From Trichoplax sp. H2 (taxonomy: Eukaryota): 64,000 bases of DNA. Each line of letters begins with the position of its first letter. The first letter of the stretch is position 1. The translations under genes were made by a program, and so were the position numbers. The notes under the pieces were generated by a model. The model saw only the letters and a program-made list of their open reading frames with translations, did not search any database and was not told the DNA's origin. Of the stretch, positions 16,894 to 59,410 are shown piece by piece. The DNA lies in assembly GCA_003344405.1 (NCBI GenBank), contig NOWV01000011.1, positions 1-64,000 of the forward strand. Reading direction: 5' to 3'.

Positions 16894-18633
16894 TCACTTT
16901 GATGCTAATAACTCGTTCATATCTAGTTCGTAGGCTTGATTTTCCTCAATTCGAATGCAATCTGGAGTGTCAGGTTGCCTGAATGTAGGATGGTTGATTA
17001 CTTGAGCCTTTGCTGGATCAGAGTCAGTGATTATCTCGTAAACAGGGTCGGCTCTTAAAGCTTCATCGATAGGAAACCCTAACTTATTCAATCTTCTAAT
17101 TGCCTTTTCCATATAGTGGCGACCTATGATGCTATAGGTGCTTCTAGCTTTTTGCACCACGTCTTTGTATAAATCGCAGGCTAACCTTTCGTCGTTTACC
17201 ATGCCTAAAGCATTCTCGTGCATCCGACCAATATGATAATCTGACCAAGTGGTAGTTCTCTTATTAATTTTCGATGAAAAAAATTGATTTGCCTGTACTG
17301 CCCGGAAGCACTGATTTCCTTTGTTTTGATCACGCATATCAGTCAATTTGCCTCCGAAGTACAACTTTCCCAGCCTATAGTATGCATAGCTTGCAGCATC
17401 ATGATCGCTAGAATCCGCAACAGTGTTATAGTATTGTATTGCTATCGTAATATCAGAGTTTGGAAGCCTATCTTTTTCTACTAACTTGGCGAGACGACAC
17501 ATTGCCATGCTGTAATTCATTTTAGCAGCAATTGCATAATGATGTGCGGCGATCACGAAGTCTTTTTCAACGCCGATACCTTTTTCGTACATAAATCCTA
17601 GTAAAAAATTACCTAATATTTTTCCATCATGATTTTCATAATCAACCGCTGTGACCGCTTTCTCAAAAAGTTCTATCGCTAGTGTAAAATTTTGTCGAAT
17701 CCCTCCTAAGCCATGATAATGTAGTTGACCCAATAAACATAAAGTATCTGCATAAGGGAATCTTGACGACATACCTAAGTAGTTAAAGGCTACGTTATAG
17801 TTATCATCAAGGTCGTCATTTGATGCTTTGGAATAAAAAGCTTGATAACCTAATAAAAATTGAGCACGGGCGTGACCATTTTCAGCAGCCTGAATTAAAT
17901 ATTGTCGGGCTTCCTCAGCTTGCTTACCTATCAGGTTACCGACATGATGAATAATATTGGCAATGTTATAATAGCCGCTGGGATTACCCATATCCCCGGC
18001 TTTTTTAAAGTAATTAGCAGCAGCTTGATATTGCTCTACATCCTTATTCTCATTCAATATCCACAACAAATAGCCATACTCATTGTATAATGTTGGTCTA
18101 TCTTCAATAATTCTATCACGATTGCTTTCAATCAGGCGTTTCTTCGAATGCTTTAATTTCATAATTTCTTTCTTCCATAAAGTCGAGTTTGATATCCTGT
18201 GTTTGAGTTCCTTGTGGGCTGGTGAACTGCATATATCTTTGGATGCTGAATTAACGTACATGGGCACTTTTAATCGTACCAGTTGTTTATCAGAAACGGC
18301 TTTGATCCATAATGCTTTCTGTGATGAAGACTTGCTAACAAATAATTGATAGAGGAGGTATTGCGCGGTAGGATGTTGCTGTTTAGCGGAACGTTGATAG
18401 TATTGAAAGCACTTTTTTAAATCTCTCTTATTCATACCGTATCCATGATGGTAGTAATATCCTAACAACAAATTGGCGTGAGGGTCATCGGTTTGTTCGG
18501 ATAACTCTAAGTTGCGCTTGATAGCATCTTCGTACAAATGATGTAGTATAGATGTGGAAATAAATTGATTTAGGTTTCGACTTTCATCGGGCACAGGATC
18601 GCGCATTTTATAAACTGCCGAAGAATTGCCCAT
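16894..18633 (-). CDS. Sel1-like repeat (SLR) protein, paralog 1, intronless CDS, 579 aa
   Basis: Multiple SLR consensus units (LGYYYHHGYGMNKRDLKKCFQYYQRSA; LGQLHYHGLGGIRQNFTLAIELFEKA; LGFMYEKGIGVEKDFVIAAHHYAIAA). Starts MGNSSA. Polypyrimidine/CAG acceptor at 18767 and candidate GTAAGT donor at 18943 suggest a 5'UTR intron. Confidence 0.9.
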   Translation of the reverse strand: MGNSSAVYKMRDPVPDESRNLNQFISTSILHHLYEDAIKRNLELSEQTDDPHANLLLGYYYHHGYGMNKRDLKKCFQYYQRSAKQQHPTAQYLLYQLFVSKSSSQKALWIKAVSDKQLVRLKVPMYVNSASKDICSSPAHKELKHRISNSTLWKKEIMKLKHSKKRLIESNRDRIIEDRPTLYNEYGYLLWILNENKDVEQYQAAANYFKKAGDMGNPSGYYNIANIIHHVGNLIGKQAEEARQYLIQAAENGHARAQFLLGYQAFYSKASNDDLDDNYNVAFNYLGMSSRFPYADTLCLLGQLHYHGLGGIRQNFTLAIELFEKAVTAVDYENHDGKILGNFLLGFMYEKGIGVEKDFVIAAHHYAIAAKMNYSMAMCRLAKLVEKDRLPNSDITIAIQYYNTVADSSDHDAASYAYYRLGKLYFGGKLTDMRDQNKGNQCFRAVQANQFFSSKINKRTTTWSDYHIGRMHENALGMVNDERLACDLYKDVVQKARSTYSIIGRHYMEKAIRRLNKLGFPIDEALRADPVYEIITDSDPAKAQVINHPTFRQPDTPDCIRIEENQAYELDMNELLASK

Positions 18634-19324
18634 AATAATAACTTGATATCGATGGTGGTGAAGAGATGAACTATCAGCAGGCCTTACAATAATGGTGTGG
18701 TTAATACAGCTGAAGTATTACCTATATAATGGCTACCAATATGCGATTAGGATATTTCAATGTTAACTGAAAGAAAAAAAAAATAAGAGTACTTGTTATT
18801 TTCATATAGAAGATAATAATGTCAAACGTAGACTCTATCGATGGAAGTGTTTCAGTGCTAACAATCAGTGGACAATTTGAACATCATCCTAAGTTATATT
18901 ATTGACTACAATGGCACTCCATATTAGACTTCAAACAACTTACTACGTCGTAAGACAACTGTAGCACCGCATTTTAATGATAAAATATGAACACGAAATG
19001 CTTCAATCTATATTGAATGAATGATCAGTTGGAGGATTAACCAATTACAAAAGGTGGATCATCTCCGGACCATTGAATGATTTGACACGCTTTCAATCGT
19101 TGGCCTAATGTTGGTATAGCATACCGGCAGATTTACACGATGGTCCAATTCATTAGTTTTGATTTCTTAGGCTATTATTTAGGCCTGCAAACTGGCGCTG
19201 TAATTGAATCGGATATTTAGGTCTACTGAATTGAACTCTTCTCGCCTTATTGGATCAGACTGCCGCCACCATTGATCGGCATCGCCTTAATAATTTTTTT
19301 TCAGGAGATTGCAAAGCTGCAACA

Positions 19325-20700
19325 CCTACAGTTCCTGCTGGTACAGTGTAAAGTACTGTACAGGGCAGGACAATCATCATACTGTACAGTACTGTATAGT
19401 ACAGTGCACAGTACAGTACGGTACACTGTACACGACGTTGCAGTACTGTACTGTACTGTACTGTACTGTAGGTAACGAAAGTAGGAAAATACTGTACAGA
19501 CTATCACTATTCTGGAAAATTGCGTTTTAGTAGCAATCTACTGAACAATGCAGTACGGTATACTGTAGTTTATGACACAGCGCTCAGAGCTCATCCCCAT
19601 CAACGATGATTGATTGATTTTAGACCAGTATTTATCAAATACTGTTGTTTCAGTGCTGCCACTGCTTTGCTAGGCATCAGTGGGTTGTATATGGGTCTAA
19701 CTACCAGAGTGGCCTCCTATTCTATCGTCAACCTACTTAGTTTGAACCTATTGATTTACATTGAGTGTACAGAGGTGAAAGGAAAGCCCCTAAAACTGTA
19801 TAGAACCTCTTTTCTTTTCACCGCTACAGTCCTATCCTCTTTGTCACCCTGTACTGTACAGACTGTACTGTACACTGTACAATACAGTACTGTACAGCCT
19901 TGGTACAGAATAGTCAAGTTAATGTACACTGTACAGGTGCAGTACAGTACTACAAGACATCGACCTTCCGAAAGGGCTGTATAGAACCTACAGTATTTTC
20001 TTTTCACCTCTACAGTCCTATCCTCTTTGTCAGCGTGCGCTACTGTACAGTACACTGTACACTGTACAATACAACCTTGGTAGTACAGTACAGTACTGTA
20101 CTGTACAGTACAGAATAGTCAAGTTAAAGTACTACTGTACACTGTACAGTACTACAAGACGTCGACAGTAATGACTCCAAAACTCTGGTGCAGTACTGTA
20201 CTGTACAGTACTACAAGACGTCGGCCTTCCGTAATGACTCCAAAACTCTGGTCCATGACTATTTCTACAGTACTGTACACTGTACTGTACAGTCCATTTC
20301 ATTTCTACTACAGTACAGTACAGTACAGTATAGTGTAGTGTACAGGATTGGAGTACTAATGAATTTATATTGACCATTAATACAGCCTAGGTACAGAAGA
20401 GTCAAGTTAAAGTACTATAGGTGTACTATTACAAGACGTCGACCTTCCAGTAATGACTCCAAAATTCTGGTCTACTGTACAGTACAGTATGACTACAGTA
20501 TTTCTAATGAACTGTACACTGTACTGTACAGTGTACAGTCCATTTCATTTCTACTGTACTACAGTACAGTACAGTACAGGATTGGAGTACTGTACAGTAC
20601 AGTACAGTACAGTACAGTACTTAGACCTGACGTCTGTACTGTACTGTAATTCACGGTAACTCGTGTCTACAGTACAGTACAGTAAACTGCCTACGTCATT
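19325..20700. repeat. Dense mixed-orientation (TACAG/TACTG)n island superimposed on locally duplicated ~180-280 bp segments
   Basis: Backbone motifs recur: AGTCAAGTTAA at about 19912, 20117 and 20400; GTAATGACTCCAAAA at about 20168, 20231 and 20450; AGTCCATTTCATTTCTAC at about 20291 and 20537. Each copy carries different pentamer insertions. Confidence 0.9.
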
Positions 20701-23700
20701 ACTCAAGTTGTGCATTACTGAATTTACAGTACATACTGTTCTGTATATCTCAAGTACGGTGCTGTAAAGGCATAAATTGAGCAAATACTGATGCAAAATG
20801 AAGTCAAAAATTCTCAAATTGAATTCGATGACTGTCATAACAAAATAGTATTATATTATAACTATAATTTATGGATTACAAAGCGCCATGTTCATTTTCG
20901 ATAAGTATGAATCAGTCAAATTCCAACAATAGCACGGTATTCAAGAGCCACAGTAGCATGCGATATTTACTGTACTGTACTGTATATTCCAAGCGTTAAG
21001 CAGTTAATCATAAGTAAACTATCCTATTACGCAGATCGACGCACCGCACTATTAACTAATACTGTATACATACGTTTAAACCAAGCATTACAGACGACCA
21101 ATTACAGACCAGTTATAAATGTCATGCTAGAATTAATATTTTCTTCACTAATGTATACGAGCTAGCATCCAAGCATTGGTGTCCCTATGGCCGCTTTTAA
21201 TTTAAATACGTCAGGTAGATTTATAATTGCACATACGATAAATTAGCACTGTAGAACATAGTTGAAATAGAAACTAATTAAATAGACATTATATACGCAA
21301 TATGATATATATTGAAGTAGAATAAACATAGTCTACGCAAACGAATACTCCTATTCTTAAAGTGTCCTTCAATCCTTTACAGTGATCCCACACCTTTATA
21401 ATTTAGAAATATTGATAGTTGTACCCTAATTGATAGAATTTGCATATTGATCATTGGTATATAAGTACCAAACTTTTATTGAGACAGTAATCATCTCCAA
21501 CGGAAGTTGCCTTGCTAGTATTAAATAAATAAAGTAAATAATTCTTGCCATAAAGGTTGAAATTCATTTTAGTTTATAATATTGCCTACAACATATACCC
21601 TATCGTAAATGCAGCATCGTTTTTTAACTATAGCTTCGATCATAACTTTTCCATTTTTTTTTTATTCTTCTCATACTTATAATCTATTGACTAACTTTGC
21701 ATATGTTTCGAACAAGAAATAATTAACAATACAAACTGTAGCCCATTTTATTAATTTGGCTAAGTTCCTTCGAATACAAGTATACAACACTTTGTATCGC
21801 ATGACAGCTGTGTATTGATGTTAGTCTCTATTGATGATTTATTCTATAATATTTTATTCTAGCAAAGAAACATATTTACATAATAGAATAATCAGTTATT
21901 GATTTAACAATAGCCTCTGTAGTTAGTATAAAATCTGCAAGAATGGCCCTAAAATTATAATTTGATTATTAAACATTTGTATAGTCTTTCTACCGTTTCA
22001 GATTTTAATAACAACATTCAATAAGTCCTCAGGCTCGAAATCAACTTACGGTAGATAAGTAGCTTACAAAACATCCTTCACATTATTTTAATGCAGTATG
22101 TAAAAGCAGAGAACAGCGAATAGATTGCCTCATGCTACTACAGTATAAAGGCATTTCGTCACACAAACAAGACAATACTATATTTTCATTTATTATAGCT
22201 ACTAACACACTGCACTCAACATTTTTACCACTGTTCAAATACCGTATAACGTAAACACCAAATGCCTATAATAATATAATCGATTATCTTCTAAAGAGCT
22301 AACCATCTAGCAATCCTATTTTAACCACTACGATATAATTTCGACTTTATTGTTGGGATTAGGGTAAAAGATTACTGCTAATAACTTAGAATAAAATGCA
22401 CAACCTATCTAGGATTTCAACTATACCGCCATAATCCAAGATTTAACGGGTATTTCAGTAGCTATACACTAAATCAGCAAGATTGAATTTATTCGACTTA
22501 ACACAATTATAGTCAAATCGATTATGATATTTCGTTCCGGTTTTTTTTATTTATTACTCTTTTTTCTTATTCTTGTCCGTATGCTCATGAGATATTCGAT
22601 CATGACTTATTACAAAGTAATAAATTTTCCTGTTAGTGACATCAACCTTTTATACCATGTACTTGTAGGTAGAATTAATCCGATAAATATATCCATTCAT
22701 TGAATGATCAAAGTATGAAATAGGTTACAAGATTATCCTTGTTTAGGAAATGAATAAGTAAAATATCTTCTTGACTTTACTGTACCGTGTAAATTGACTT
22801 TATTTAGCTTACTATTGTAGTATTCTGCTTAAAGCAAAGTTACGCTATCATACAATTAATCAACCTATGCATTCATACATAGGTATATATCAAATCGATG
22901 CTAATAGATGTTAACCCTTACTTCGATACTGCAGATGTCAACATAAACATTCTTTGAATCACCTTGATATTTATTCCATGCTTAATTCATGTCAAGAAAT
23001 ACAGTCTTGCTTATATTATAATCAGATTATTTTACAGTAAAGACATCTTGAATAATGATTAAACTACTAATGGTAATGGACAAAGAAATTTTGACTCTAT
23101 TACTTATTGCTATGCTCCTCACCTTGTAATTTTCGTCCTCAGGGTAAAAGTTTACAATAGAATCTGATGAAGCTGGGAGTGGATAATTATGATTCTTTCT
23201 TTTATTAAGCAACCTGAGACTGATAGCGTTAGATCTCTAGCAAAATTGATAATAATAAACAAATGTTAAACACTCTATAGTAATTAGTTTTAACTCGTAT
23301 TAAACGTAGAGATTACCTGATCAGCTATTACTTTCGCGTTACGAAAGTGAAGTTTTCTATATAAAGATTTCTTACAATTACAGTACTGTATAACATAATA
23401 AATTTATAGCGTTTTTACCTATTACTGTAGTACTCTAGTGTAATTGTCCTTAAGGTAATGATATTTACAGATCCAATAATAATTCTCATTTTATTTCCAC
23501 TAAAAGAGAGGTATCAATGTGATGTGGTATAGTATATATATATACGCATACGTAAACTCGGATACACTAAAATTTTCTACCCTTTGTAAGTCATGGTATG
23601 TTGATGGCAACATCATGAAAGAATCAATACTCAAATAAATATGCATTATTTCTCAAGTAAACCAGATTTCTTTATAACTTTATTGGGAAAACTGACAACA

Positions 23701-26418
23701 TTTCGCTACCATTATAATGATCTTTCGTGATACGAATCAAATTTGCATGGGTATGCTATTGAAAAGAACATGGTCTATCCTTTTGTTGTTACAGCATTGT
23801 TTACAAAAAACCCATAATTTATCTGACGTGCTAGAATAAAATTTTATATAAGTAAATTTAATACCCAAATTTTGCTCATTTTTGGATACGCTCTCTATCT
23901 TCCTGTTAATTTAGTTTAGGAGAGAGTTATTCCAATATCGTCGGAAAACTATAGCGTATGCAATCAATCTTAATTGGTTGGCTTTAATGCTGTCAAAAAA
24001 GATAGCGCATACTTTAGTTACGACAATACTTATGAACTACTAGTAGATAATTATTGTCCAGTTTGCAGAGAATTTGCACCAAGATGTGTGCCAATCCATT
24101 CAGTACGAAATCATATACGATTATACATTTATTATAGCGACATACTCTGAGATGATATCCCTTTCTTCTTTGGCTGCACGGTGACCGGAAATCATGACCT
24201 GGATCATTAAAATATTTTAATTCGGTGTATAGTTACCATAAAGGAGTTATTTTCAGTTGGCCATAACTGCAAACTGATACCGTATCGTACTGTTGAAGTA
24301 CGCTTTTTTTATATACTTATTAATTATGCATACAGTACATAGGTCCATTAGAAATCTAACGTATTTACACAGTACAATTTTAGTACCCAATTCAATGATG
24401 GCAAAAGAGATCTATTCAATTTTCTTGTAAAGGTATATTACTGTACAAAAGGAATTGTTAAGGTTGTTTTACAATCAATAATGCTTTAGCTAGTAACAAG
24501 ATATAGAGTGATACGAGTACGTATATCCCTTGAAAGCAACTTCTATGTTATTTGTCTCTACTCATATAGTACACTATAGAAAATTTGAAGCTAGATGATG
24601 TTAGGTATTCGAGAGAAATGATGCAACTATAACTCTACAGTATATCCCAGTTCTAGTAGGCAATATCCTAGCACTCTAACAGCGTATCAAAACATATGGT
24701 CAACTACAGTACACTATAGACCAAGCTATCCGAAACTTTTGATATCACAGTAATTTAAAATAACAACAACGGAAAATTTTTAATGATAAATTACAATAAA
24801 AGGACACGTTCCAAAATGTTAAAATGCAATTTGTGTAGATGACCTTTATTTTCTATCATAATAGCAGAATATGATTACATATGTCGTTATCGAGATTTAT
24901 AATTACTACAACAAATTTTAAATTTATAAAGATACAAGAACATCGGGGCGATCAATAAGTATATAAGTTACGATATATAACTGCTAATTACATCATCCTT
25001 TGTAAAGTAGATACTCGCAGTAAGTGAAAACCATTATCATTGTAAATGCAGATAACACCGATTTTTAAGAAAACATAAGTCGCGTCGAGGCCAAAATAAT
25101 TTTAAATTGAATGATAAAGAATGTTAGTCTATTATATGATGATAAATTTTTATATTTAAATTTTTACCGTCTACTCAACAACGACATTTTTTTTCAGATA
25201 CTAAAAAGAGATACTGTAGTAGTTGTTAATAATTCAGAATTTGATATTTACGCACACGTAACTCTGAAATTGTTACAGGATGATCTACGAGTGGGTTAGA
25301 ATTTCAACACACCATCATTTCACAACGTTACAACAAAATGTTACAAGCTAATATTCAATGAGCCAAGATAGATGAAGAAGTACGAATTATCAAGTCATAA
25401 CTTTAAAAAATACTAACCTCGACTTGACGGTAGAAAATTGTTTTAATCATTGAATACTATACACTCAAAGGCAGTTAAAATTCACGATGATCGTACAAAT
25501 TCTCAAGTAGATCCCACTATGCATACATAATGTGATAACAACACCAATATGATATAGGCCCGCTTGTTTTCAGCGAAAGCGCATATCTACATTGTTTATT
25601 ATTAAAGTATCGTGTTAGTTTGTAATAGTCAAGTTTAACTGCAACTGATCGACAGCATGCCGATTCTGGCAATAGTCTAGCGGACGAAGTCAAGTCTTGT
25701 ATTGACCGCTAATAAGGGCGATGTTCATTAATTATCAACTTAGCCATCTTAAACTGTATAGACATTGTTACGGTATGTAATCGTTGTGATTTTTAGATCC
25801 TCCGAGATACAAGTACTATTAAAAATTGGATGCCTAACGTGTTACCTTGAGGGGTAACAAATTAAATACCAAATAAAATTATCAACGTGTAATTAAATCT
25901 CTTGCAAGTAGATTTCAATCAATAAGAGTGATAATTAAATCCACGTATGACAGCATCATACAAATTAGCAATTTTATAATTTTGATAAGAAATTAAAATT
26001 GTCCAATCCTGTGAGTTATAACTAAATAAAGAAGAAAACTGCATTACAGGCTAGTCATCGTTTCTAAGTGTAACAAGATTGATGTGTAGAGTAGATTTGA
26101 TTGAAATAATCAATTGAAATGGGGTAACGGCACCAGAACTAAAATTAACAGTTAAAGTCATGTCACATCTTGTAATGTACTAAAAAATAACAAAACTAAT
26201 AACTTAAATTAACATTAAACATCTTCAGTTTCCCTTTCATTTACTGATTAACGATAAGTGTGTTTTCAGTAACAAAAAATGTCCTATCATCACTCTTGTA
26301 TTATTAATTTTTGTAGTTATTAATTTAACCTATATTAGTGCTCGGTAAGTCTTAACTTTAAGTTGAAATCTATTTCATTGAAATTCTAATCACACCTCAT
26401 TTGATAGACTTGATTGAG

Positions 26419-28182
26419 TTATTCTTGACTGTCCAAGTGTATATCTTCATTGATTGAATTTTCTTCGATGGATTTTTCTTCGGCAGACGATTTTTCTTCT
26501 GCGGACGATTTATCTTCTGCGGACGATTTATCTTCGGCGGACGATTTATCTTCGGCTGGCAAGTTATCTTCGATTAACTCCTCTTCTTCAATTATAACGC
26601 TGGTAACATTGATAGCTTGCAAACTGATCAATTTAGCATATTTTTTCTTCGCTTTTTCACCGTAATGCTTCTCGCTAATGCTATAGGTTCCCATAGAGAT
26701 GTTGACGGCCTCACGATAGAATTTGATGGCGTGATTAACGTCCATCATGACACCATATCCATTCTCGTACATAATACCCAAATGGTATAACTGGCACACA
26801 GTTTTTACGTCATGAATTTTGGATAAATAGAAGTAATTGGCTTGTGATTTAACAAAGTAGCGTCTCGCCTTTTCAGGATCATACAGATTAGCATATTGAG
26901 GATTGTTGTAAATTTTACCCAAGCGATAAGATGAATAAATAGCACCATCTAAAATTTCCGATTCTGATGCAGTCTGATATAATTGTAAAGCAACGCTGAT
27001 ATCGGCCATTGTGACTTTACTTTTTTCGACTAGTTTTGCCAGGCGACAAAGCGACGGAGAAAATTTCATCTTTGCCGCACTAGCATAACAGTGACATGCC
27101 ACGTTATAATCAACTTGTACTCCAAGGCCTTTTTCATACATGTAGCCCAAACAAAAAAGAGCCTTGGGTTTGCCATTACCGTCTTCATAATCGACTGATG
27201 ATGCTGCTTGCTCTAAATACTGATTGGCCAAAGTAAAGTCTTGTTCGATCTCGCCTTTACCTAAAATGTACATCTTACCTAGACAATATAAGGTGGATGC
27301 AAAAGCATATCTTGCTGATGACAGATATAACTGATGTGCTCTTTCGATGGCCTCATCCTTACCCACTTCATCACTATCATAAAAATTACGGGCTAGAATC
27401 AGTTCGGCTCTTGGATGTTGTTGTTTTGCTGCTTTCTCAAAGTATTCTTTTACCCGTTCACTATCTTTCTCGACACCAAAACCATGGTAATACATTAAGT
27501 AGCCAATATTCCAATAACCGGCAGGGTTGCCTAATTTTGCAGCTTTCTCAAAGTAGCTTTTGGCATCTTGAGATACAGTCGATTCACCTTTGATATTCAA
27601 TCTAAGCATAACATAACCTAATTCGTTGTAGGCTTTAGCCAATTCTAAATCTTCTTCGTCGTGATTTTTTTTACTTGCTTGAGCCACTTGCTTAAGATAG
27701 CGATTTTTCAATTTAATTAATTCCTCTTGCCATGCCTGAGATGCTTTAAACGTTTCTCGTAAGTCAATGTGTGCCTTGGAATAAAATGCATCTTGAGCAG
27801 CCGATGCTACATATGCCTTGACTTTCATGGCTACCAAATCCTTTTCTTTGAGGAATTTGACATGGGATGAATTTTTCTCTTCACTACCGTACAATTGGCA
27901 TATATAATACATAGCAGTTGGATGATCAGCCTCTGCAGCTAACTGATAATATTGAAAAGCTTTTTCTAAGTCGACCTGTGTATTGCCAGTACCGTGATGA
28001 TAGATGTATCCCAATTGAAAATTAGAATGCGGGTCATTACTTTCTTGCGATTGTTGTAAACAACGATGCATGGTGTTGCTAACCATTCGCTGTTGCAATT
28101 GCGGCATTACAAATTGATCTAAAATACTAAAATCATCGATGAACGGTTCCTTAACATCGTACTTGCTGGTATAACCCCCCAT
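26419..28182 (-). CDS. Sel1-like repeat protein, paralog 2, intronless CDS, 587 aa
   Basis: Collinear with paralog 1 (QLGYIYHHGTG..DLEKAFQYYQLAA; YNELGY; GNPAGYWNIG; LGYMYEKGLGV). Starts MGGYTSK. Probable 5'UTR intron 28185-28339 (GTAAGC donor, (CT)n/poly-T tract, AG 2 nt before ATG). Confidence 0.9.
   Translation of the reverse strand: MGGYTSKYDVKEPFIDDFSILDQFVMPQLQQRMVSNTMHRCLQQSQESNDPHSNFQLGYIYHHGTGNTQVDLEKAFQYYQLAAEADHPTAMYYICQLYGSEEKNSSHVKFLKEKDLVAMKVKAYVASAAQDAFYSKAHIDLRETFKASQAWQEELIKLKNRYLKQVAQASKKNHDEEDLELAKAYNELGYVMLRLNIKGESTVSQDAKSYFEKAAKLGNPAGYWNIGYLMYYHGFGVEKDSERVKEYFEKAAKQQHPRAELILARNFYDSDEVGKDEAIERAHQLYLSSARYAFASTLYCLGKMYILGKGEIEQDFTLANQYLEQAASSVDYEDGNGKPKALFCLGYMYEKGLGVQVDYNVACHCYASAAKMKFSPSLCRLAKLVEKSKVTMADISVALQLYQTASESEILDGAIYSSYRLGKIYNNPQYANLYDPEKARRYFVKSQANYFYLSKIHDVKTVCQLYHLGIMYENGYGVMMDVNHAIKFYREAVNISMGTYSISEKHYGEKAKKKYAKLISLQAINVTSVIIEEEELIEDNLPAEDKSSAEDKSSAEDKSSAEEKSSAEEKSIEENSINEDIHLDSQE
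26471..26556 (-). repeat. Coding 18-bp tandem repeat, about 5 copies, encoding (AE[D/E]KSS)n
   Basis: GCGGACGATTTATCTTCT-type units on the + strand; protein PAEDKSSAEDKSSAEDKSSAEEKSSAEEKS. Confidence 0.9.
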
Positions 28183-29171
28183 TGCTTAAGATTTCCAAGG
28201 AGAGAGAGAGAGAGAAAAAAAAAATCAACGTATCAAAATTAGATTATTCTACGGCTGTCAAGCAGTCGAAAGAGTTGATAGTAATAAGATATTCATTTTT
28301 TATCACGTTATAATTACATTGATTATGATGATCGCTTACCGTCTCAATTACGCTAAACCTTTACGATCAAAAAAAAAAGAAGTGGCTTTGTTTTCTCTCA
28401 AGATTGAAAGAAATGGTTGAAGATCGTTGTTATTCTGCCAATAAATAGATATTGATGTATTATGCGTATGGCACAGACTCATTTTGTAGCATCATAGTAC
28501 AGTTCAAATATACCCAAAATGATGTTGGAAATTGTTATTTTGAAAAACTGAGAAAGGGTAAACAGTCCATAACAAAATTACTCGTTCTAGCTAGAGGACT
28601 GTTGAAGCGCTAATTCGCTCCCTGTACAGTACAGTACAAGATTTGTCTTGTACGCCTCAAAACGAGTAAATGTTGCATGCCATACAAGCATTTCAATACA
28701 TAATTTACCTACTCACCTTTCAATAACGTTGCAATGAGGCAGAATTACAATTTCAGCAACGTTTAAGTTAGGCTTATTGACTGTACGCGTTAAGATAATC
28801 TAAACTAACTAATAACGATGACAATCGACGCCCAAATCCAACGACTGTAGTCGATTTTGCCAAGTTGCAATTGATTTTATATATACAGTAGTGGAAAGCG
28901 CTGGATGGGCAACGACACGCTGGATGCTAACTTACTTTTATACTTTACTCTAGTACGACGACTCATTCACAAGACTGTCCAGAACTACCCAATCAGCCAG
29001 CATTGGATGAGATTTTCACTGGTTGGAGACTTGCTGCAAGGCTTTACTAATCAGACTACTACTAAAGTATTCCATGCTAGTGTACTCTTTTTAGGCACAC
29101 TGGTTTAAAGGGGGGGGGGTAGCTTTCCTTATTGTTCTCACCACACTCGTTGTTGTCGCATGGGACTATAG

Positions 29172-29270
29172 TAGTACAGTACAGTACTGTACAGTAGACC
29201 TTGTACAGTACAGTGTACAGTACAGTACAGTACTGTAGATGTCCTAGTCGAAGTACTGTACACTGTACAG
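29172..29270. repeat. Mixed-orientation TACAG/TACTG cluster
   Basis: tagtacagtacagtactgtacagta...tgtacagtacagtgtacagtacagtacagtactgta...tactgtacactgtacag. Confidence 0.85.
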
Positions 29271-32200
29271 TCTGAGAATTATTTTCCATGACACCACTTC
29301 GTTCAAAAATCAACATTGTATTCCGTTAAAATTCTTGTAGGATAATATTGATATACACCCATGGAAGGATATCTCCACAACATCCAATTGATCTAGTTTG
29401 GGCTTGATTGAACGTCTACAATTCTCGATCTTTTCAGCGGTGGCATCCAAATCAAACTGTACAGTACTAGACCGTTGACCATGGTACGCGCTACACTTTC
29501 AGTACAGGACTCACTTCTACGATCCCTACTGTACGTCAAGTTTGACTGTACTGCATACTGAGGGATACGAGTTCATACTTTCTGTACTATTGCCGATTTT
29601 GCACATCTTTCTCTATTATAGATTGCCAGATTGACAAGTTCAAAGCGGTCTGAGCAATTTTTTTTTTTTAGCCACTTTGTCATTGTTTATCTTTATAATA
29701 AACAATATATTGTATTATTATTACTGTATTTAGAAGGGGAGTTTATTTGTACAGTCCTTGTACTGCAGTAGGAGACTTCTAAATGGGTTGAAGACCAGAC
29801 CAGGCCAAAGATCGATACATCTGCTCCATGTGCGGTCACGATAATCCACCACTGTCATACAGTGAAAAGGATTTTGACAGAACGAGCCGCAATATGGCCC
29901 TTTCTACTCTACCTTACTATAAAAAGTCACTCTAATTATTGATTCATTTTATTTTATGGTAATCAGCAACTCACAAGACAAAATCCCGGTCTACGTGCAG
30001 TCGTGGACAGTAAAAATAAATAACATGCAGTAATCCGCTTGTTACTGGTTATTACGGCACTACGTTTCCGAAATTATAGAGTTAAAGAACGTATTGTTGC
30101 TCACACTGTTGCAGTGGTACAGTATACTGATTGTCAGCCTTTTAGAAGGGTAGTTTTTAGGCGTTATAGTAGCAGTACTACATTCTTACTCGATCTTTCG
30201 ACAGGTTAACGTAGTAATTTGTACATGCAACTCAAAGTAAGTACTTTACGACGTAAAATTGTCAGCAAGTAGTCCGTAACACCACTGATTAACAGGGGTA
30301 GAGAGGTTTCGGCCAAGTAAACGAAAAATTCATGTTTCAAGTCAAGTGATAAGCCGACTTTGCTTAAATTGAATCTTTTTAATCAGATTTTAATGTACTG
30401 TACAGCAGAATCAATGGACAGTATCAGTAGTATGGAAAGTTAAAACTTTGAAGTACTGCTCAAACTGGATAGTATCCTATCAGAGATTGATAGAAGTCCA
30501 TGACATTGCAGTATTGTTAATTGTGAATACGTACGCGTAGACGGTATACAATATGCGCCAGACAGTTTTGGTCTTTTAACATTTTAAAAGTTATTACACG
30601 TGTATAGAGTGCAGTACAGTGATCCAAGCGCCATGAAAAAGAAAAATATAAAAGGAAAATCAACGATCCCATAAATTTGCCAAATTTTCTCAAAGGAGAA
30701 AAATATACTTTGATTCTCTAACAAATATCATACCGTGCGGGTGCATACTGTATATATCGCAGTAAAGTACGAAAGCAAATACAGTAATAATAACAATTTA
30801 TATACAGTAATATAAATACAGTACACCCCCTATTTTACTGACGTAAACAGATCGCTCAAATCCTTAATAAGCAACTTAGCAGGTTTCGTAAACTGCCAAC
30901 TACAAACGCCAAAAATCCTTCTTGAACTTTCAATGATACACAAAAGTGTTTTTACGATCTTTGAACAAGTTACATACTGCACTGTATGAAAGTGACGGCG
31001 ATTACTTTACATCATAAGCGATTAATGCCGCCCCCCCCTCCGCAAAAAAAAAAAATGGATAAAAACACTGCAGTTCTGTATTTAGCAGGACTAAATGAAC
31101 ACCTATGCCTCAATCAATCAACTCAAAAGTTGGAGACTCATGTTGATGCTTTCGAGCTCTACAACGATTAAAAGCCATTTGGAAACACTGTAGTTATATG
31201 GAATTACTAGGAAGGACTATTAATCGCTATGTATTGATAACATTTAGTTTAAACGACAATATACGTATTTAATGAAATCGTCTGCAAGCCAGTGTACTTA
31301 TTCTCCTATTATACAATAGTTACTATAGCACTGTAAAATTTGCAGGTCGATTAGTTGTTAAGATAACTTAGAAATACATCAATTTCGAAGAGAACTACAC
31401 TATGACCCTGGATTTCATTGTCAACTCAAAAATTATATAGTGTAAAGAAATAAATATATACATACAGTAAATATCACCATGGTTCATAAAGTGAGGTGAC
31501 AGTCTATGAGACCTGATGTAGTACTCAACAGTAAGATAGGAAGACCTTCAAATTTAAGTGCTTAGTCAATTAGACATGGTAGCAAATTATTAAGCTTTCA
31601 GAAATTATCCTTTATGAACATTGAAGCATACCTAGCATGCGCTATGCATTAGTGATGATGATATGCATTTACTTCAATAAATCTGTTACTATAGCAGTCA
31701 AAGCTTGTATTCGCGTTTGGTACAGTTAGCATACCACAATAGCGTTAGTCTCAATTAAAGTTTTAAATTCAAGGTAAGCTTTAGTAGAAATCATTACTTA
31801 ATGGCGTAGTAAATTTTTTTTGATTTACTAAAACGATTGATTGCTTCCCTCATAAAGGGCTAAATGTAACAGCTATATAGCAAACCCTTGCTACTCAACC
31901 GTTACATCCTATACATAGAGTAAAAAATGGCGGGGCTGTCAATAAAGTAGATTGTATACTCGTAAGTAACCTTTAAATTCCTTTATCTCACACTTCTTTT
32001 ATAGACCTTGAAGAAATTGAAGGGTTAACTTGACACAACTATGTCAGCGCCTACACCACTTCCATTGAAAGACAATACTGTACTGTAGTAACCGGGTTAG
32101 TATAGATCAGCAATGCATTACAAAGATAGACCTCGTTTGGCAATAAACAAGTTGGAAAGTCATTAAATGAAATTTTATACGAAATCTTAGATAAACAAAA

Positions 32201-33920
32201 ACAACATTCCATACATATAAGACAATGTAATATATATTCCATAGAATCTATTATAGATCAATCGATTATCAAGTATAATATACGTATATGCATATATGGG
32301 ATATATATTTATATGCATATACTGTACTTCGCATATATAAAAAAGATAGATAAGGCATAAATACAATCAATACATATCGAGGACACAATACCGTATACCA
32401 GAACGTAGAATATGTATTAGCACTGAAACATATACAGCATAATGATAGATAGCTAATCAACGGAATTTTAATACGAATTTTATGAATGACTCCACAATAT
32501 ATCATACTGGTCGATATATTGAGAAACTAAAAATGTAGCTGTAGGAGTACCTGATCAATAAGCTAAAATGTAGAGGCTATAGCAGCCAAAATAAAACCAT
32601 GCTACAGACTATAAGAATTACATACAGTTTACCTTTATAAAGTAAAATTAAAGTAATAATATGCATAGATTATAAAGAATGCATTTATCCCCTCGCAGTC
32701 TTTAGACTGTAATTATAAGCCATATAAACCCAAATAAATCAGTCGTCTACTACTACTACTACTAAGCAATATACTACCAACATCAGAATACAAGTACTAT
32801 CCCAATTTGCAACAGTGATCCAATCAGAATAATATGTTCATTAGACAAAAAATATATTTATCCAAAATGAATATAGTTCGAAAGGATTATTAATTTTCAT
32901 CATTGCAACGAAAAATTTTTCTCTTATATATGAATATATATGACAACGAAGTATATACGCTGAAGTGCTATCTTATATAGGATGGGTGATAATGAATTAA
33001 AGCTAGCAATAATGCGATAAGATAGTAGAACGAAGATCACCCTGATCCGACATTGCTATCGTAGCAGCTCCAATCTTTATAAATACCGACAGGAATAGCA
33101 GTAGTAATTTTACTATCAAAGCATATGCGCGTAATACAGTATTGAGAAGCAGGCAGCTCGCTTATTTGCACTTTTATAGTACTGTAAGTCATTCGAGTAT
33201 AAACGAGTGCTATAGCTAAAAATAGCTAAATACGGGGAAGATAATGATGCCGTTAATAAATTCCTGATCTAAAATTTCACAGCTTAGTAGTGTAAACATT
33301 ACCTATAGAATTATAACCATCAATTTCACCTTGTATGGTATCAATGAACGATAATGAGATTAGCTACCGGTAACCACATAATTGAAACGTCTTGTATCTG
33401 CCGTGTAGTGTACCGCAAGGAACAGAAGCAGTTTCGAGACGTTATGAGACAAAACGTAAATAATTTCATTAATCGTACACATGATCACAGTACAGTCAAT
33501 AAAACGCAGATATTAATTATTCCAAGATGATTTAAAAAAATGGGTTAAGGTGTTTTAATTGTAGATGCATATCAAGTCGATATTTACGCTATAAAATAGT
33601 CGCATGCTAAAGCAAAGACTACTATAATAGGATTTTAGTAGTCTTGGCTGAAGGCACCGGTAACAATTTAAAATGCGACTGTACCGTACTGTATAAACGA
33701 TAATGATGAATATAATTAAAAAAAAGTGCCCAAAATTAGCCTTGGCATGATTATTTATTAATCCAATCTCAAGACTAGCATAACTCGTAATTAAAATAAG
33801 AACTATCTCAGTTGCTTTACCTACTTTTCGCTATTTGTTACATCTTGTTGTATGTTTTGTAGTGTTTAGGAGTACCTTTAGCATGATGAATAATGTCCCT
33901 TGTCAACATGACGCAAGCTG

Positions 33921-35594
33921 TTACTGTTGCTCATCATCCGATGCATTGGTAATTTCTGCTTGTTCCAAATTTTCCTTGATATGGTGTTCTATATTTTCTT
34001 CTTCATTCGCTTCCTCAGCATCGGCTGTCCCTCGAAATGCTAATCTATCAAAACATTTCTGTGCCTTACCGCCATTATACCTCTCAAACATATTGTAACT
34101 CTGTTTCGATAATTCAGCGGCTTTTTGGTAGTACTTTATTGCCAATTCTCTATTTGGAGAAACACCTAATCCCTTTTCGTACATTACCCCACTTCGATAC
34201 AATTGACCAACTACCGCCGTATCTTGAATTTTGACAGCATATAACTGATTGGCTTGAGCGGCGCGAAGATAGCTGGTCGCTTTAGCTCGATCGTAAAAGC
34301 CACTGTCTGGGATACCATAAATTTTACCAAGTCGATAAAGAGCATAACAAACAGCAAAATCATCATCAGAATCTACAGCTGCTTGATATAACTCGACGGC
34401 AGTATAAAGGTCGGAAGTTTTCAACTTTCTCTTTTCTACTAATTTGGCAAGCCTGCAATAAGCTACATAGTATTCCTTTTTAGCCGATAAAGCGTAGTGA
34501 TGCGCTGCTTTATTGTAGTCACACTCGACACCATGGCCTTTCTCGTACATATAGCCTAGAACGTAGTTGGACCATGCGTTTCCTCTGCCGGTAGTAAAAT
34601 CAGTAGCAACAGCAGCTCGTTCAAAATAATCACGAGCTTTCTCATAATCTTGCTTGACACCTCCCCTTCCATACAAGAAAAATTCTCCTATGAAATACAA
34701 AATCTCAGCAAAGCCATACTGTGAAGCTGAGAGGAACAAGTCGAGAGCATTTTCCAATTCATCGTTACGACTTTCAAGATAGGAAAAGTGATAATTATTG
34801 GCGACGATATACAATGCTCGAGGATGGCCATCATGAGCAGCTTTCTTGTAATATTCCAATTTTTTGGATTCATCTTTATCGACACCGAAACCATTGTAAT
34901 AGAGCCATCCACCGATATTGAAGTAACCAGCTGGATTGCCAAGTTCAGCAGCACGCTTGAAAAAATCAAAGGCTTTTCTAAATACTGCTTGATCCTCATT
35001 AGCGTTCAAGCGTACGGCTAAGTAGCCTAATTCGTTATAAATACGAGCTAATTCTTCTTTGGATGATTGATTGGAATTTTTGACGATATTCCGATAACTA
35101 CTGAATATCTCCTTAATTTCACGCCTCCAAACGGGAGAATAAACGTAGTGATAACCTAATTCTTCGTGAGCCATGGAATAATAGGGATCTTGGGCTGCAG
35201 ATCGAATATAATAACGTGCCTTCATGTTAATTAACTTCTTTTCGTTCATGAGCTTGACACAATCCTGGCTATTTTTACGTTTATCACTACCGAACAATTT
35301 ACAAATCATATACATGGCTGTAGGATGTTCTTGTTCAATTGCTTTCTCGTAATATTGATACGCCTTTTCTAAATCTTTGTTGCATTTGTAGCCTAAGCCG
35401 TGATGGTAAAAATTACCCAGTTGGTAATTGGCGTGGGCATCGTTGTTTTCTTCCGCTTGTTGCATGTAGTCCAGGGTTGCATTATCATACATTTCGAATA
35501 ATAATTGATTGGATACAAATTGATCCAGCAAGTAGGAAGTATCATGAGATGAGTCGTTTACTTTATATCGGCCTTTGGAAGAGGTAGCGCCCAT
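33921..35594 (-). CDS. Sel1-like repeat protein, paralog 3, intronless CDS, 557 aa from the ATG
   Basis: The track ORF starts at a GTG (35621). The first ATG (35594) gives MGATSSKGRY, which aligns with the starts of paralogs 1 and 2. Same SLR units (QLGNFYHHGLG..DLEKAYQYYEKA; YNELGY; GNPAGYFNIG; LGYMYEKGHGV) and an acidic tail. Confidence 0.9.
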   Translation of the reverse strand: MGATSSKGRYKVNDSSHDTSYLLDQFVSNQLLFEMYDNATLDYMQQAEENNDAHANYQLGNFYHHGLGYKCNKDLEKAYQYYEKAIEQEHPTAMYMICKLFGSDKRKNSQDCVKLMNEKKLINMKARYYIRSAAQDPYYSMAHEELGYHYVYSPVWRREIKEIFSSYRNIVKNSNQSSKEELARIYNELGYLAVRLNANEDQAVFRKAFDFFKRAAELGNPAGYFNIGGWLYYNGFGVDKDESKKLEYYKKAAHDGHPRALYIVANNYHFSYLESRNDELENALDLFLSASQYGFAEILYFIGEFFLYGRGGVKQDYEKARDYFERAAVATDFTTGRGNAWSNYVLGYMYEKGHGVECDYNKAAHHYALSAKKEYYVAYCRLAKLVEKRKLKTSDLYTAVELYQAAVDSDDDFAVCYALYRLGKIYGIPDSGFYDRAKATSYLRAAQANQLYAVKIQDTAVVGQLYRSGVMYEKGLGVSPNRELAIKYYQKAAELSKQSYNMFERYNGGKAQKCFDRLAFRGTADAEEANEEENIEHHIKENLEQAEITNASDDEQQ

Positions 35595-36427
35595 TTTGAC
35601 TTTTTCTCTCTCTTGGTCCACTTGATTGTTTCTTGACAGTACCCCCTAGTACCTCAGTAGAATAAAAACTACTACGATAGAGTAATCGATGCAAGTATTA
35701 ACTACGATAGTAGCGAGGCGAATTTTAAATAGCCTTTTCTATCTCCTATCAAGTAAGTGTAGTCCACGGTGGTACGCGTAAAACGATGGCTTGTAACGAT
35801 CAGGGACTACTCCAGAATCGACAAAAGACAGCACAGGGAGTAAAACTCGATCTACTGTCTATTATTAGACTGTACAGTATAATTAATAAATTTCTTCTTG
35901 GCTTTATCTACGTGTAATAGTAACGCTATCTAGTATTGCTCTGCTAGATAATGAGAATAGTACTAGATAATGAGAATAGAGCGATAGGCGAGAACGCTGT
36001 GTGTATGAATAAGTCAGTCCAATGATGTAATCTGTATCTGACTAGGCCACCCCCCTCCCCATACAATACATACTGATCGATGAATAACATGAAGCATTGG
36101 ACACCAGTGATAAGAGAGTACTGTACACTGTACACTGTACTGTACACTCTTTTTTATCCCGCAATGAATGCTGTGGCAAATGCATGCCTATTCTATTGTT
36201 CTATTCCTAGCAATGCACCAGTAGCAACCCTTGGATTGATATTAAAACAGGAGTAGGACCACATAATCCACTCAATCAGTCCACATGAATTACCAATACA
36301 ATTCTTATATGATTATTCTTATAAATTGATTTATTTTATTTGTTATTCATTATTCATTATAATAATTAATCATTATTATCCACGACAGTAACAAATATCA
36401 CGAACTTAGTTTTGTCCAGTCCCCATG

Positions 36428-37171
36428 CAGTCAATCAACATGGACGCCCATCGTAGTGGGTACAGCGTTTAGGCTAGGTTTTACGCGTTCAGTACGATCG
36501 GGCAAATGAAAGCCGCTAGTGGCCCCACACTACGCGTATCGTATACCTTTAATCCGTGACATAATTTTAATATGTTGCCGAATATCTTCATGCTGTACAT
36601 TGCTTTATTTCTGCGTGAGTGAGTTATTCCACGAGCGTCGAGTGGCCCAACACTACGCGTTATCGTACTACTGTACAGTATATATTTAATCCATGGCAAT
36701 TTGACTGTGTTGCCCAACATCTTCATGTTGTACTGTACATTGCTTATTTCTTAGCGAGTGAGTTATTCCACGAGCCTCTAGTGGCCCAACACGACGCGTA
36801 TCATAGGATCATACTATACATTTAATCGGTGACACTATTTGACTGTGTAGCCCAACATCTTCATGCTGTACATTGCTTACTGTATTTTTTAGTGAGTGAG
36901 TTATTCCACGAGCCTTTATTATAGTCCAGACAAACATCTCTCCGTAAAGAAGTCAAAAAATAAAAAGCACTACAGACTTGTTGAGAAGCCTCTGAAAACA
37001 GCCACGTTAAAAAAATAAAATGGTAGGCTATGATTTCGTAGAAAAGTTCTCAAGCATGGAACTTCCTGTCGAGTGGATACAAACTGTGTAGCAATCGTTT
37101 TATCCTTTTATGCTAGACCAGCCGACCATGACCCACACTTGTGTCCACTAGAGGCTAAACGTTTATGACTG
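36428..37171. mobile_element. Candidate degenerate non-autonomous DNA transposon with CAGTC...GACTG termini
   Basis: Left end CAGTCAATCAACATGGACGCCCATCGTAGTGGGTACA resembles the reverse complement of the right end, CAGTCATAAACGTTTAGCCTCTAGTGGACACA. Right flank is TA; left flank is TG. Internal repeats contain AGCCTCTAGTGG, related to the terminus. Confidence 0.35.
36516..36915. repeat. Three-copy tandem repeat, unit about 123-139 bp
   Basis: Units begin AGTGGCCC at 36518, 36641 and 36780 and end GAGTGAGTTATTCCACGAGC. Much of the length difference comes from TA-anchored insertions. Confidence 0.9.
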
Positions 37172-54444: not shown

Positions 54445-57400
54445 GCTGAGAATGAATAAGCACTAGCTAAGACTTTTTGTAAATCGTATCAACTCTACTT
54501 TAAGATATCCAAGATTAACGTAAAATGGCCAGTTCACAACGTTCCGGGTCGGTCTCGCTAGAAGAGGGTCATTACATCAGAATAATTCATAGTATCAAAG
54601 TACATGTTTACTTCAAGTGAAGATTAGTACAGGTTAGGCAAATAATATAATTTGAACTCTTTTCAAAAGTTAATCAAGCACACAATACTTTCTGTTTACT
54701 TTTCATCGGAATAATGTCAGTTAATTAACCTAATTATTTTAGCCATAAGGCATTGATTATAACTACTGTGTAAATTTATCGTTGATAATAATTCTATTAG
54801 TTAGTGTAAATAAATCAAGTGACGTACTACAACGGATTAAGTAATGGACTGATGAAATTATTTAATAATATCATTACTCCTATGTTAATATGAATTGTAT
54901 CGTATTGATTGATATGTCGTTAGTCACGGAAATAATTCGTATATCTTCGACCACCCAGCGTTACTAAATTTAATAATTACTTGAATATGCTATATTAGGG
55001 TAAATTACAAAGTAGAAAATGTCTGTTGTTACATTGATTTCATTATATTTAATCCACGTAATAAGCAATTACCCAAATAATAGATAGATCTAAATTACGA
55101 GATAGCTTAACAAATTTAGAAAGAAATCAATTCTGGTATGGAGCATCCTACAGTAGTTGCATTACGAAATTATAACGATAACGTTAGTCTAATTGCATGG
55201 AAACTATTAGATGCACAAACATCCTAGCCATATCACAATAACTACATTCAACTAAAATTTACGAGAAACGCCTACAAGATGGATAATGGAATCAATTTGC
55301 TTGACTATGGTAATCAGAATTTAAGTACTGTCAACATCTCTATAGTACCACAGTACATTGGGATGTAACTAAATTCTTATACTCGTATGAGCATCCAAAA
55401 TTTAAGCTTCTGACGTCGCTCTTGTCGATTTATCAATAGCTATAATGCATATCGCGATTCAAAGTTGTGAATCATTAAGCTAATTATAACCACGATTCTA
55501 TCAATATAATTTCCTAATTATTACACAGTAGCGACTCATCATCTGTTGATCAAGCAAGTGATTTTTGTGTTAGCTATGTTGTACAAAATGATGTATTCTT
55601 TTACGATCATGAGCTGTATTGTATATGGAGCATTACATGCTCAAAGTAGTCAGGAAATTAAATCAATTTAAGCTACATAGTAACGTAAGACAGCATACAG
55701 TGTACATATACGATATACTGCATCTACTAGTATCGACAGTATATAATTCCGTCGGCAACCCTTTAGCCATCGATTTGCACTCTTAGTATAGTATCCAGTA
55801 GTAGCTTTTGTAATTATAATTATACGCGTAACTTATCTTTATGGATCTGGTATAAGATATTTCCGTAATCTTATATGGCATGCATTCTAAACGTACCGAG
55901 TGTTAACTTTCTTTATGAGCCCAACTTCAAACCTTCGTAGTACTCAACAATTCATACACTTGCGTCTTATAGTCGTCGGATCAAGTGTTTTTGCCAACGG
56001 TATCGGCGGATTATGGAAATAGATTTAAGACGTTCTAATCCACGTTTTAATGAAGCTTCTGTCACGTTACTTGTATGAAATCAGAGGAGATTTTAATTAT
56101 GGTATGGATCATCATGGTAAATAATGGTTTAGTCGGCATAAATAATGAATTAAATAAATAAACGATCAAATTGAATCAACTATTGCAGTCGAAATACTCG
56201 TAGCAAATACTGCCTTAATTTTGCTCACTTAATAATACATTCGCGCGTATTTCTCTTTTAAAAAGAAACAAATAGTTGGTATTTTGATAGTGTACTTCTG
56301 CACTGCAGCCCAGTAGTTAGTTAGACTAATTATACGTGTATTGTCACCAATTGAAGAATATCATCATTCAGATGTTACAGCTATTACAAGTATCTTTAGG
56401 TATTTCGGCACCCATATTAATTTAATAAACCAATGATATATAATCACTATGCACACCTTATTTTACGTATATAACGAACTATTTATGAATGTAATTGATT
56501 ATTCAACATGATGTTTGATCGCTTAATGTACCTATAGCGTGCAGATTGATACTTTAACTAATTGTCATTTAAACGAGTTAGATATTCGCTCTCTCCTTCT
56601 AGGAAGTCCGCTAGTCCAGTCTTGCGCTACTACTACGGTATAGTATTTAAATATTCGCATGTACCTATTAGTCTAAATGCAATAGTGAAGCATCATTTTG
56701 CATCAATCTTCTTTTTCAACTTGTATGACATACTCACTATCTTTGATGCTATTGTTATTTCGTCTATTTTATATCAACCAGAATTTACCATTATTAATAC
56801 TGTACGTTCTAGAAAGGCAGAACTATTTACAAGAGCAAGAAATGCGAGTTTAACATATAATAGACGGATGGCTATTGAATGGTTAACATTTTAAATTTGA
56901 TGGAATAGCTGTGCCATACTTACTTGGTAGTATTAGGCTTATTAGAGAATTAAATTGCTAACAGCAGCACCCTGTCATATCACTCAAGTCTTAGCACCTA
57001 TATCTCATGCGATACTATTTGTACACTGTACAAATTAGCTAAGCGAGATTTAGTTTGTTACTGTATAACGCTAGTATTTCTATGATAATTGCATTTAATC
57101 ACTGTAAAATTAGGTCGATGGAGTAAGGAAAGAATACAATGAAAATTAAGCCGCTATAGCATAGTAAACGTTTTCTATGCGCTCATCAGTGATGGCATAC
57201 GGTCAACAGGTCAAAGTCGATGGTCGTATACTGTTCATGATTAATTTTTTTTTCAACAACAATGCCTGTATCACGCATCTTATTAGGCCTGTTAAGAGTT
57301 CAATATGATCAGCTATAGAGTAATATTTTACCTAGAGTATCGCTGAGTCGACAACATTGGAAACCAAATTTATCCTCAAAACTATCATTGCATGACAAAC

Positions 57401-59251: not shown

Positions 59252-59410
59252 CAGTACTGTACTGTACAGTACAGTACTGTACACTTCCATGGACTGCTAA
59301 GATACTGTAGATTTACAGTACATATACTGTAGTAGTCCATATTACAGTACAGTACAGTACTGTACAGTACAGCACATAACATCGGATACTGTAGAGTACA
59401 CTGACATGGT
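59252..59410. repeat. Mixed-orientation TACAG/TACTG cluster upstream of WDR7
   Basis: CAGTACTGTACTGTACAGTACAGTACTG (a self-complementary 28-mer) and further runs at 59343-59372. Confidence 0.85.

Follow-up and report, generated by a model that had tools for sequence, protein, structure and literature searches.

In the placozoan Trichoplax adhaerens, (ACAGT)n ranks as the major microsatellite and accounts for 78% of the pentanucleotide repeats (Wang 2010, Biol Direct 5:18, PMC2871265). According to the same report, 54% of the ACAGT repeats are located no more than 1 kb upstream of a gene, and a role as transcription-factor site was suggested. More recently, a neural network applied to Micro-C chromatin maps of Trichoplax picked out a repeating ACAGT motif (10.1101/2024.11.14.623548, a 2025 preprint). 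Why this repeat predominates in Trichoplax has lacked an explanation since 2010. The same letters are known from a different context, the excision of Tc1/mariner-type transposons. In the model described for Sleeping Beauty, insertion duplicates a TA dinucleotide and excision leaves 3-nt CAG overhangs on each side (10.1101/659086). These overhangs pair with an A:A mismatch, the repair of which yields either TACAGTA or TACTGTA (10.1101/659086). Here we analyzed 64,000 nucleotides of Trichoplax sp. H2 (contig NOWV01000011.1, positions 1 to 64,000 of the forward strand; hereafter "the window"), an AT-rich stretch of eukaryotic layout with ~32% G+C. An earlier note on this DNA had read its TACAG/TACTG arrays as a stack of Tc1/mariner-type excision footprints. 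The observation was confirmed, while the interpretation is partly supported. The arrays of the window are the published dominant placozoan microsatellite, i.e. the repeat itself is already known. In a literature search on the motif, on footprints and on placozoan transposons, we found neither a transposon-footprint origin nor any other origin proposed for it.

The two heptamers, jointly written TACWGTA, occur 171 times in the window, as compared to 15.9±4.2 times (largest value 31) in 100 dinucleotide-preserving shuffles. Among the 1069 heptamers of the form TA-NNN-TA in the window, CTG (90) and CAG (81) rank first, followed by TAA with 39 occurrences. The longer variants TA-CACTG-TA and TA-CAGTG-TA, to which the earlier note had also pointed, are likewise present: the corresponding 9-mer TACASTGTA was found 18 times, versus 0.86±0.88 in the shuffles. 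Parsing of the sequence as TA, n units of CWG or CASTG, and TA yielded 123 stretches. Of these, 95 consist of one unit only and the other 28 are arrays with two to six units; arrays may combine units of 5 and 7 bp. In the output of Tandem Repeats Finder, the ACAGT class dominates the simple repeats of the window, and higher-order periods of 10, 12, 14, 17 and 22 were reported in addition. The repeat extends beyond the interval 19795-20600 to which it had been assigned: 61 of the 171 heptamers fall within ~19300-21000, where they form a dense cluster at ~19326-20984, and more arrays are found elsewhere. Three Sel1-repeat open reading frames (ORFs; 5307 bp in total) contain none of the 171 heptamers, although ~5.0 of the 58 isolated ones (no other heptamer within 60 bp) would be expected there (P=0.007); the depletion from coding sequence that had been anticipated is thus seen in these three ORFs.

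The units are strictly constrained in size and in the base at their center. When the palindrome GTAC was used to mark unit borders, 65 spacings of 5 bp were obtained, with A at the center in 35, T in 28, and G and C in one case each. A spacing of 6 bp never occurs, and at a spacing of 7 bp the intervening letters are ACT (12 cases), AGT (2) or AAT (1). Point substitution was considered as the cause of the orientation flips and rejected. In contigs from four sequencing runs (see below), A<->T exchanges account for only 27-36% of the substitutions at A/T sites. G/C centers should consequently outnumber flips if point mutation were responsible, but they make up 2 of 65, so that a strand-symmetric process rather than substitution must set the orientation. 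Telomerase-like extension of both ends of a break was rejected as well, since it predicts only CAG blocks followed by CTG blocks, whereas the arrays contain 10 transitions from plus to minus and 12 from minus to plus. Opposite neighbors are equally frequent in arrays of two units (3 of 9 pairs) and in longer ones (19 of 57). A switch rate that is independent of array length fits orientation being set at the birth of each unit. Spacers directly beside canonical units are enriched for CACTG (44-fold), CAGTG (17-fold), CA (3.9-fold) and C (2.7-fold).

Units are present in one copy of a sequence and absent from another, both between paralogous copies within the reference and between strains. The contigs of four of the 18 sequencing runs listed (X1, X2, X5 and X9) were aligned to positions 18800-36500; they break at the arrays and do not bridge them. 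Two sites in the reference and the contigs serve as examples:

20494-20500, filled site TACAGTA; the paralogous empty TA is located at 20260-20261, with identical flanks (tgac and tttcta).
~19324-19331, TA with three alleles; TA-CAGtt in the window, TA-CAG-TA-CAGtt in X1, X2 and X5, and in X9 an additional 8 bp (CCTACACT) two bases upstream.

Behind position 21593 (TA at 21594-21595), the window reads acaTAtacc whereas X1 and X5 carry acaTACAGTAtacc; in X2 and X9, the site is as in the window. Neither TACAG nor CTGTA is found within ~50 bp of this site. At this lone TA, exactly the canonical footprint thus segregates between strains, as a gain or a loss. A transposon that makes a 5-bp target duplication and leaves both copies behind was rejected as its source, as the change is not a duplication of the flanks. 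Behind position 19326, ccTAcagtt of the window is replaced by ccTACAGTAcagtt in X1, X2 and X5, which is equally a tandem duplication. The earlier note had expected an excess of 5-bp insertions and deletions (indels) between strains. The four runs yielded 48 indels. Among the 12 listed ones, no 5-bp indel other than these two is present, both with TACAG put in, a 0-to-1 and a 1-to-2 change outside arrays. Of the two, the change at 19326 is ambiguous, and the other 36 indels could hold further cases for or against.

The three comparisons between empty and filled copies that the earlier note had drawn within the reference were all recovered in place. At 20256-20265, tgac-TA-tttc differs from tgac-TACAGTA-tttc cleanly by 5 bp. 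The sequence ccttgg-TA-cagaatag (19898-19913) corresponds at 20075-20118 to ccttgg-TA followed by G, CAG, CAG, CTG, CTG and CAG, each closed by a further TA, and then cagaatag; a third copy of the site, at 20381, reads cctagg-TA-cagaag. This difference is real, but its reading as an insertion is not compelling: the "empty" copy at 19904 already carries TACAG, so that the array at 20081-20110 may equally have arisen by expansion of an existing unit. In the third comparison, caaTAcaAcc (20067-20076) faces caaTA-CAG-TA-CTG-TA-caGcc (19880-19899), which requires an A/G substitution in addition. Pairwise alignment of the copies at 19808 and 19989 likewise revealed gain or loss of a unit, with one extra substitution required. 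Further differences were found in a 138-bp repeat. Its third copy carries gct-TACTGTA-ttt (36878-36884) where the second has gct-TA-ttt (36745), a clean difference, with CTGTA present 10 nt upstream. The second copy has TA-CTG-TA-CAG-TA at 36669-36680 and TGTA-CTGTA-CA at 36731-36737 to itself. The 138-bp unit as such is present in 2.7 copies of ~78% identity (36511-36918), and its copies have a second variable spot in common after atcgTA. Taken together, changes between TA and TA-CWG-TA without an adjacent copy to duplicate exist in four cases (21593, 20494, 36878 and 19808/19989, the last with the extra substitution), one of them polymorphic among strains; three further cases are ambiguous.

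Motif identity, the A/T-only center, the 5- and 7-bp sizes and the changes at lone TAs are thus observed features of the repeat, and this fine structure fits, but does not prove, an origin as scars of a cut-and-paste transposon. We propose that excision footprints of the Tc1/mariner type seed the arrays, which slippage or duplication then enlarges, an explanation to which we assign almost an even chance. A TA-inserting element of this type with CAG(TG) termini would duplicate a TA at every insertion, and its excision would leave three end bases, whose A:A mismatch would be repaired to CAG or CTG. By our own reasoning, an occasional 5-nt remnant would give the overhang CAGTG with a central G:G mismatch and, upon repair, the 7-bp units with CAGTG or CACTG; CAGTG is a common terminus in the Tc1 family. 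Once a few units adjoin each other, tandem duplication or slippage, together with local segmental duplication, would enlarge and copy them, resulting in runs of like-oriented units and in clustering. Where the repeat is found would be set by a preference for insertion into promoters or by local hopping. That a transposon with CAG(TG) termini was the maker, re-inserting near or within earlier footprints, is inferred from these features. The case rests on the identity of the motif and on a handful of births without adjacent copy. A more specific scenario assumes a Tc1/mariner-type element (or a transposase derived from one) of low copy number that is active or was so until recently. It would have hopped through placozoan promoters so often that its locally multiplied scars became the commonest microsatellite of the genome; this appears possible to us, though less likely than not.

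The element itself was searched for within the window. Of the 49 ORFs with a length of 80 aa or more, 30 were scanned for Pfam domains; the remaining 19, which overlap arrays or run antisense to the Sel1 genes, were left out. Only P450, WD40, Sel1 and peptidase M1/ERAP1 domains plus one DUF5125 match below cutoff were obtained, i.e. no transposase domain was present in these 30 ORFs. Pairs of TA-CAG...CTG-TA within 6 kb provided no convincing inverted ends in the window, the best reaching 17 matches in 24. One further pair, TACAGTGTACA and its reverse complement TGTACACTGTA at 55694-57030, lies 1.3 kb apart with both partners next to TA. However, the two share only 11 letters of array type, their similarity extends over at most ~13 nt and no ORF above 110 aa is present; this pair is probably a product of chance. 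Other scar types gave no signal either, with 4 matches to the Tc1-style 2+2 scar TACATGTA and none to the full 3+3 scar TACAGCTGTA. The CAG(TG)-ended, TA-inserting element postulated in the earlier note was accordingly not encountered in the window.

This outcome is one of several that weigh against footprints as the source of the repeat. For the species as a whole, 11 mariner/Tc1 fragments have been described, three with complete ORFs but single-copy and devoid of inverted ends, and it was concluded that none is active (PMC2871265). That census was incomplete, however: Kim et al. (2025, PMC12221973) showed that DNA transposons of the Mutator type are often inserted in promoters of placozoans. 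The text of that study, as far as available, contains none of the terms mariner, GTAC and ACAGT. Adjacent units are alike in 44 and opposite in 22 cases (p=0.009 versus one half), which makes some growth by duplication of neighbors or slippage certain. Furthermore, 15 of the 28 arrays have a C as first base of the right flank (p=1e-4 at a background of 0.21), and in 7 this flank opens with CWG; on the left side, the array is directly preceded by G in 13 cases and by CWG in 7. Arrays with such partial units at their edges are not cleanly bounded by TA; this would fit slippage, but also the decay of outermost units or a bias towards TAs with CAG already beside them. At the isolated heptamers the outer flanks are near background, with G before in 14 and C after in 18. 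Most copies lie in a few promoter-proximal clusters, which hold 113 of the 171 heptamers, rather than at scattered TAs. Outside clusters, the heptamers exceed the product of their half-sites by modest factors, 1.4 for CAG (24 versus 16.9, p=0.03) and 1.6 for CTG (34 versus 20.8, p=0.0006). In addition, the presumed births at 19326, 36731 and 19904 sit at a TA already next to CAG or CTG and may equally be tandem duplications, the change at 21593 is unpolarised and can be read as gain or loss, and an 86-bp tandem repeat of 11 copies (58249-59192) carries no TACWG unit. Thus, of the original reading as a footprint stack, the canonical motif pair, the A/T center in 63 of 65 units and the lone-TA changes stand in its favor, whereas the 44:22 bias in orientation, the partial edges and the clustering do not.

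Much of this evidence is shared with an endogenous microsatellite, to which footprints would bear a coincidental likeness. The palindromic GTAC allows (GTACW)n to form hairpins with single W:W mismatches, and slipped hairpins favor expansion; 2-bp duplications would convert 5-bp to 7-bp units. Template switching within or between strands, known as quasi-palindrome correction, can turn A units into T units. As GTAC is a palindrome, this route is available here and was overlooked in the earlier claim that slippage is unable to explain orientation switching, a claim that we do not uphold. Folded as single strands, arrays of 30-34 nt reach -5.2 to -10.6 kcal/mol with mismatched stems as predicted, yet compared to shuffles these energies correspond to z values of -0.07 to -2.2 and are not clearly beyond expectation. 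The excess of like-oriented neighbors, the partial units at the edges, the higher-order periods, the simple 1-to-2 duplications at 19326 and 36731 and the lack of a transposon in the window, in a lineage described as poor in transposable elements (PMC2871265), all speak for this explanation. It offers no source, however, for a unit at a lone TA, as in the 21593 polymorphism and at 20494. Furthermore, arrays of only two units, 3 of 9 of which are mixed, are too short for the hairpin that would drive switching but switch as often as long ones. It would also have to be accidental that, out of roughly 100 classes of pentamers, the dominant one is the canonical footprint. An endogenous hairpin-forming microsatellite hence accounts for everything except the lone-TA births and the mixed two-unit arrays, and we consider it a serious candidate, conversion of 5-bp to 7-bp units included, albeit with a probability well below one half.

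The position of the arrays raises the possibility that factor binding or chromatin shaping keeps the repeat upstream of genes and that its likeness to footprints is accidental. Arrays are located 445-690 bp upstream of the start codon of all three Sel1 genes, where no other DNA can be aligned, and this is in line with the 54% of ACAGT repeats placed less than 1 kb upstream of genes (PMC2871265) and with the ACAGT motif extracted from the Micro-C network (10.1101/2024.11.14.623548). Selection explains neither the units at lone TAs nor the A/T-only center, though, and copy number and orientation vary freely between recent local duplicates, suggesting weak constraint on the exact form. As a bias in insertion would give the same preference for promoters, we regard a selected promoter element as an improbable origin. 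A similarly low probability is assigned to another enzymatic process acting at TA, either end-joining with insertions templated by arrays elsewhere or a domesticated nuclease derived from a transposase. Ectopic templates would be abundant, given that in each of the four runs array words reach ~100 times the depth of unique sequence. The three alleles at 19324-19328 possibly mark a break-prone spot, and three mariner/Tc1 ORFs have been reported from Trichoplax that are intact but single-copy and lack inverted ends (PMC2871265). On the other hand, a single cut at an end of the Tc1 type would, by our reasoning, produce complementary overhangs, which are simply re-ligated with no 5 bp added. We also know of no precedent for exact insertions of single units bounded by TA.

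If excision footprints did seed the arrays, an animal genome famed as nearly free of transposons would carry tens of thousands of transposon footprints, a sign of heavy cut-and-paste transposition, whether past or ongoing. A motif linked to promoters and chromatin contacts would then be a by-product of transposition, with a mutational rather than an adaptive explanation. To our knowledge, there is no other case of transposon excision scars building a microsatellite family. Should the footprint idea fail, the repeat would still be an unusually clean palindromic microsatellite that switches orientation.

The surroundings of the arrays were characterized as well. The three intron-less Sel1-repeat ORFs are located on the minus strand, and the window further contains exons of an M1 aminopeptidase, of WD40 proteins and of a cytochrome P450. 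The Sel1 ORFs and the repeat features assigned to them or found elsewhere are as follows:

16897-18717, minus strand, intron-less Sel1-repeat ORF, first of three in tandem (574-607 aa, each starting with MG).
26422-28185, minus strand, intron-less Sel1-repeat ORF, second of the three.
33924-35645, minus strand, intron-less Sel1-repeat ORF, third of the three.
~19326-20984, dense cluster of TA-bounded CWG and CASTG units with short duplicated modules interspersed, 690-2350 bp upstream of the first Sel1 ORF.
19795-20600, region of duplicated modules, the copies of which differ mainly by presence or absence of units (self-BLAST, pairwise alignments).
19796-19976 and 19977-20172, first pair of modules; 20070-20362 and 20376-20625, second pair (self-BLAST, pairwise alignments).
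28625-28636, 29175-29196, 29204-29237 and 29254-29267, arrays 445-1080 bp upstream of the second Sel1 ORF.
36119-36144, mixed array of 5- and 7-bp units (CTG, CACTG, CACTG, CTG), ~525 bp upstream of the third Sel1 ORF.
36669-36884, units private to single copies of the 138-bp repeat.
59255-59369, two arrays of mixed orientation with five units each, beside the 86-bp tandem repeat.

The three Sel1 proteins are 38-44% identical to one another. Among the relatives found, just one bears a name, a bacterial SEL1-like protein with 25% identity; another relative reaches 83%, and the trio may represent a family of foreign origin. At its C-terminus, the second protein carries AEDKSS/AEEKSS repeats encoded by an 18-bp repeat of 5.7 copies (26471-26572). 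Coverage by X9 is almost nil over 27074-28255, and no contig joins across this stretch. Each of the three paralogues has a unit-bearing array 445-690 bp upstream of its start codon, and these arrays are the sole alignable DNA that the three upstream regions have in common. A scan of metagenomes for the orthologous locus yielded one relative of 31% identity without arrays. Within the dense cluster, a module with the sequence tactacaagacgtcgaccttcc adjoins arrays in four copies (19948-19969, 20150-20171, 20209-20230 and 20427-20448), and a similar stretch is present in inverted orientation near 20620-20648. A run of ten G (29111-29120) precedes the arrays at 29175 by ~55 bp. The 86-bp unit (95% matches) contains gcgatcgaatcgatcgatgg, and the block directly adjoins TACWG arrays.

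When compared with the systems outlined above, the repeat of the window belongs to the same motif class as the published (ACAGT)n, TACAG and CTGTA being rotations or the complement of ACAGT, and it is likewise located upstream of genes. The published description differs in that it deals with one motif only; its text, as far as available, mentions neither two orientations nor 7-bp units or anchoring at TA, and it contains none of the terms footprint, excision, palindrom- and slippage (PMC2871265). Resemblance to hairpin-forming microsatellites shaped by quasi-palindrome template switching lies in the palindromic core, the mismatched hairpins and the restriction of changes to the center of symmetry; these systems differ in that they provide no new unit where a TA stands alone. 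In Paramecium, internal eliminated sequences are bounded by TA and have ends resembling Tc1/mariner termini, but they are still present and are removed precisely in development. They thus have in common with the arrays a TA plus CAG-like end signature from Tc1/mariner relatives, but unlike the arrays they are not tandem scars. Known footprints of Sleeping Beauty and Tc1-like elements are single scars at former donor sites, in contrast to the stacks of up to six units found here in a window with no element, and neither tandem stacks nor 7-bp units with CACTG or CAGTG are among the eight footprints presented for Sleeping Beauty (10.1101/659086). The minor footprints TACTA, TAGTA and TACATA of that system are, however, also found beside arrays here, and the CA and C spacers match its non-canonical footprints (10.1101/659086). 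Moreover, the repeat shares with the canonical footprints the identical 7-bp sequences with TA on both sides, both centers in similar numbers (CAG 81, CTG 90) and single-TA empty alleles.

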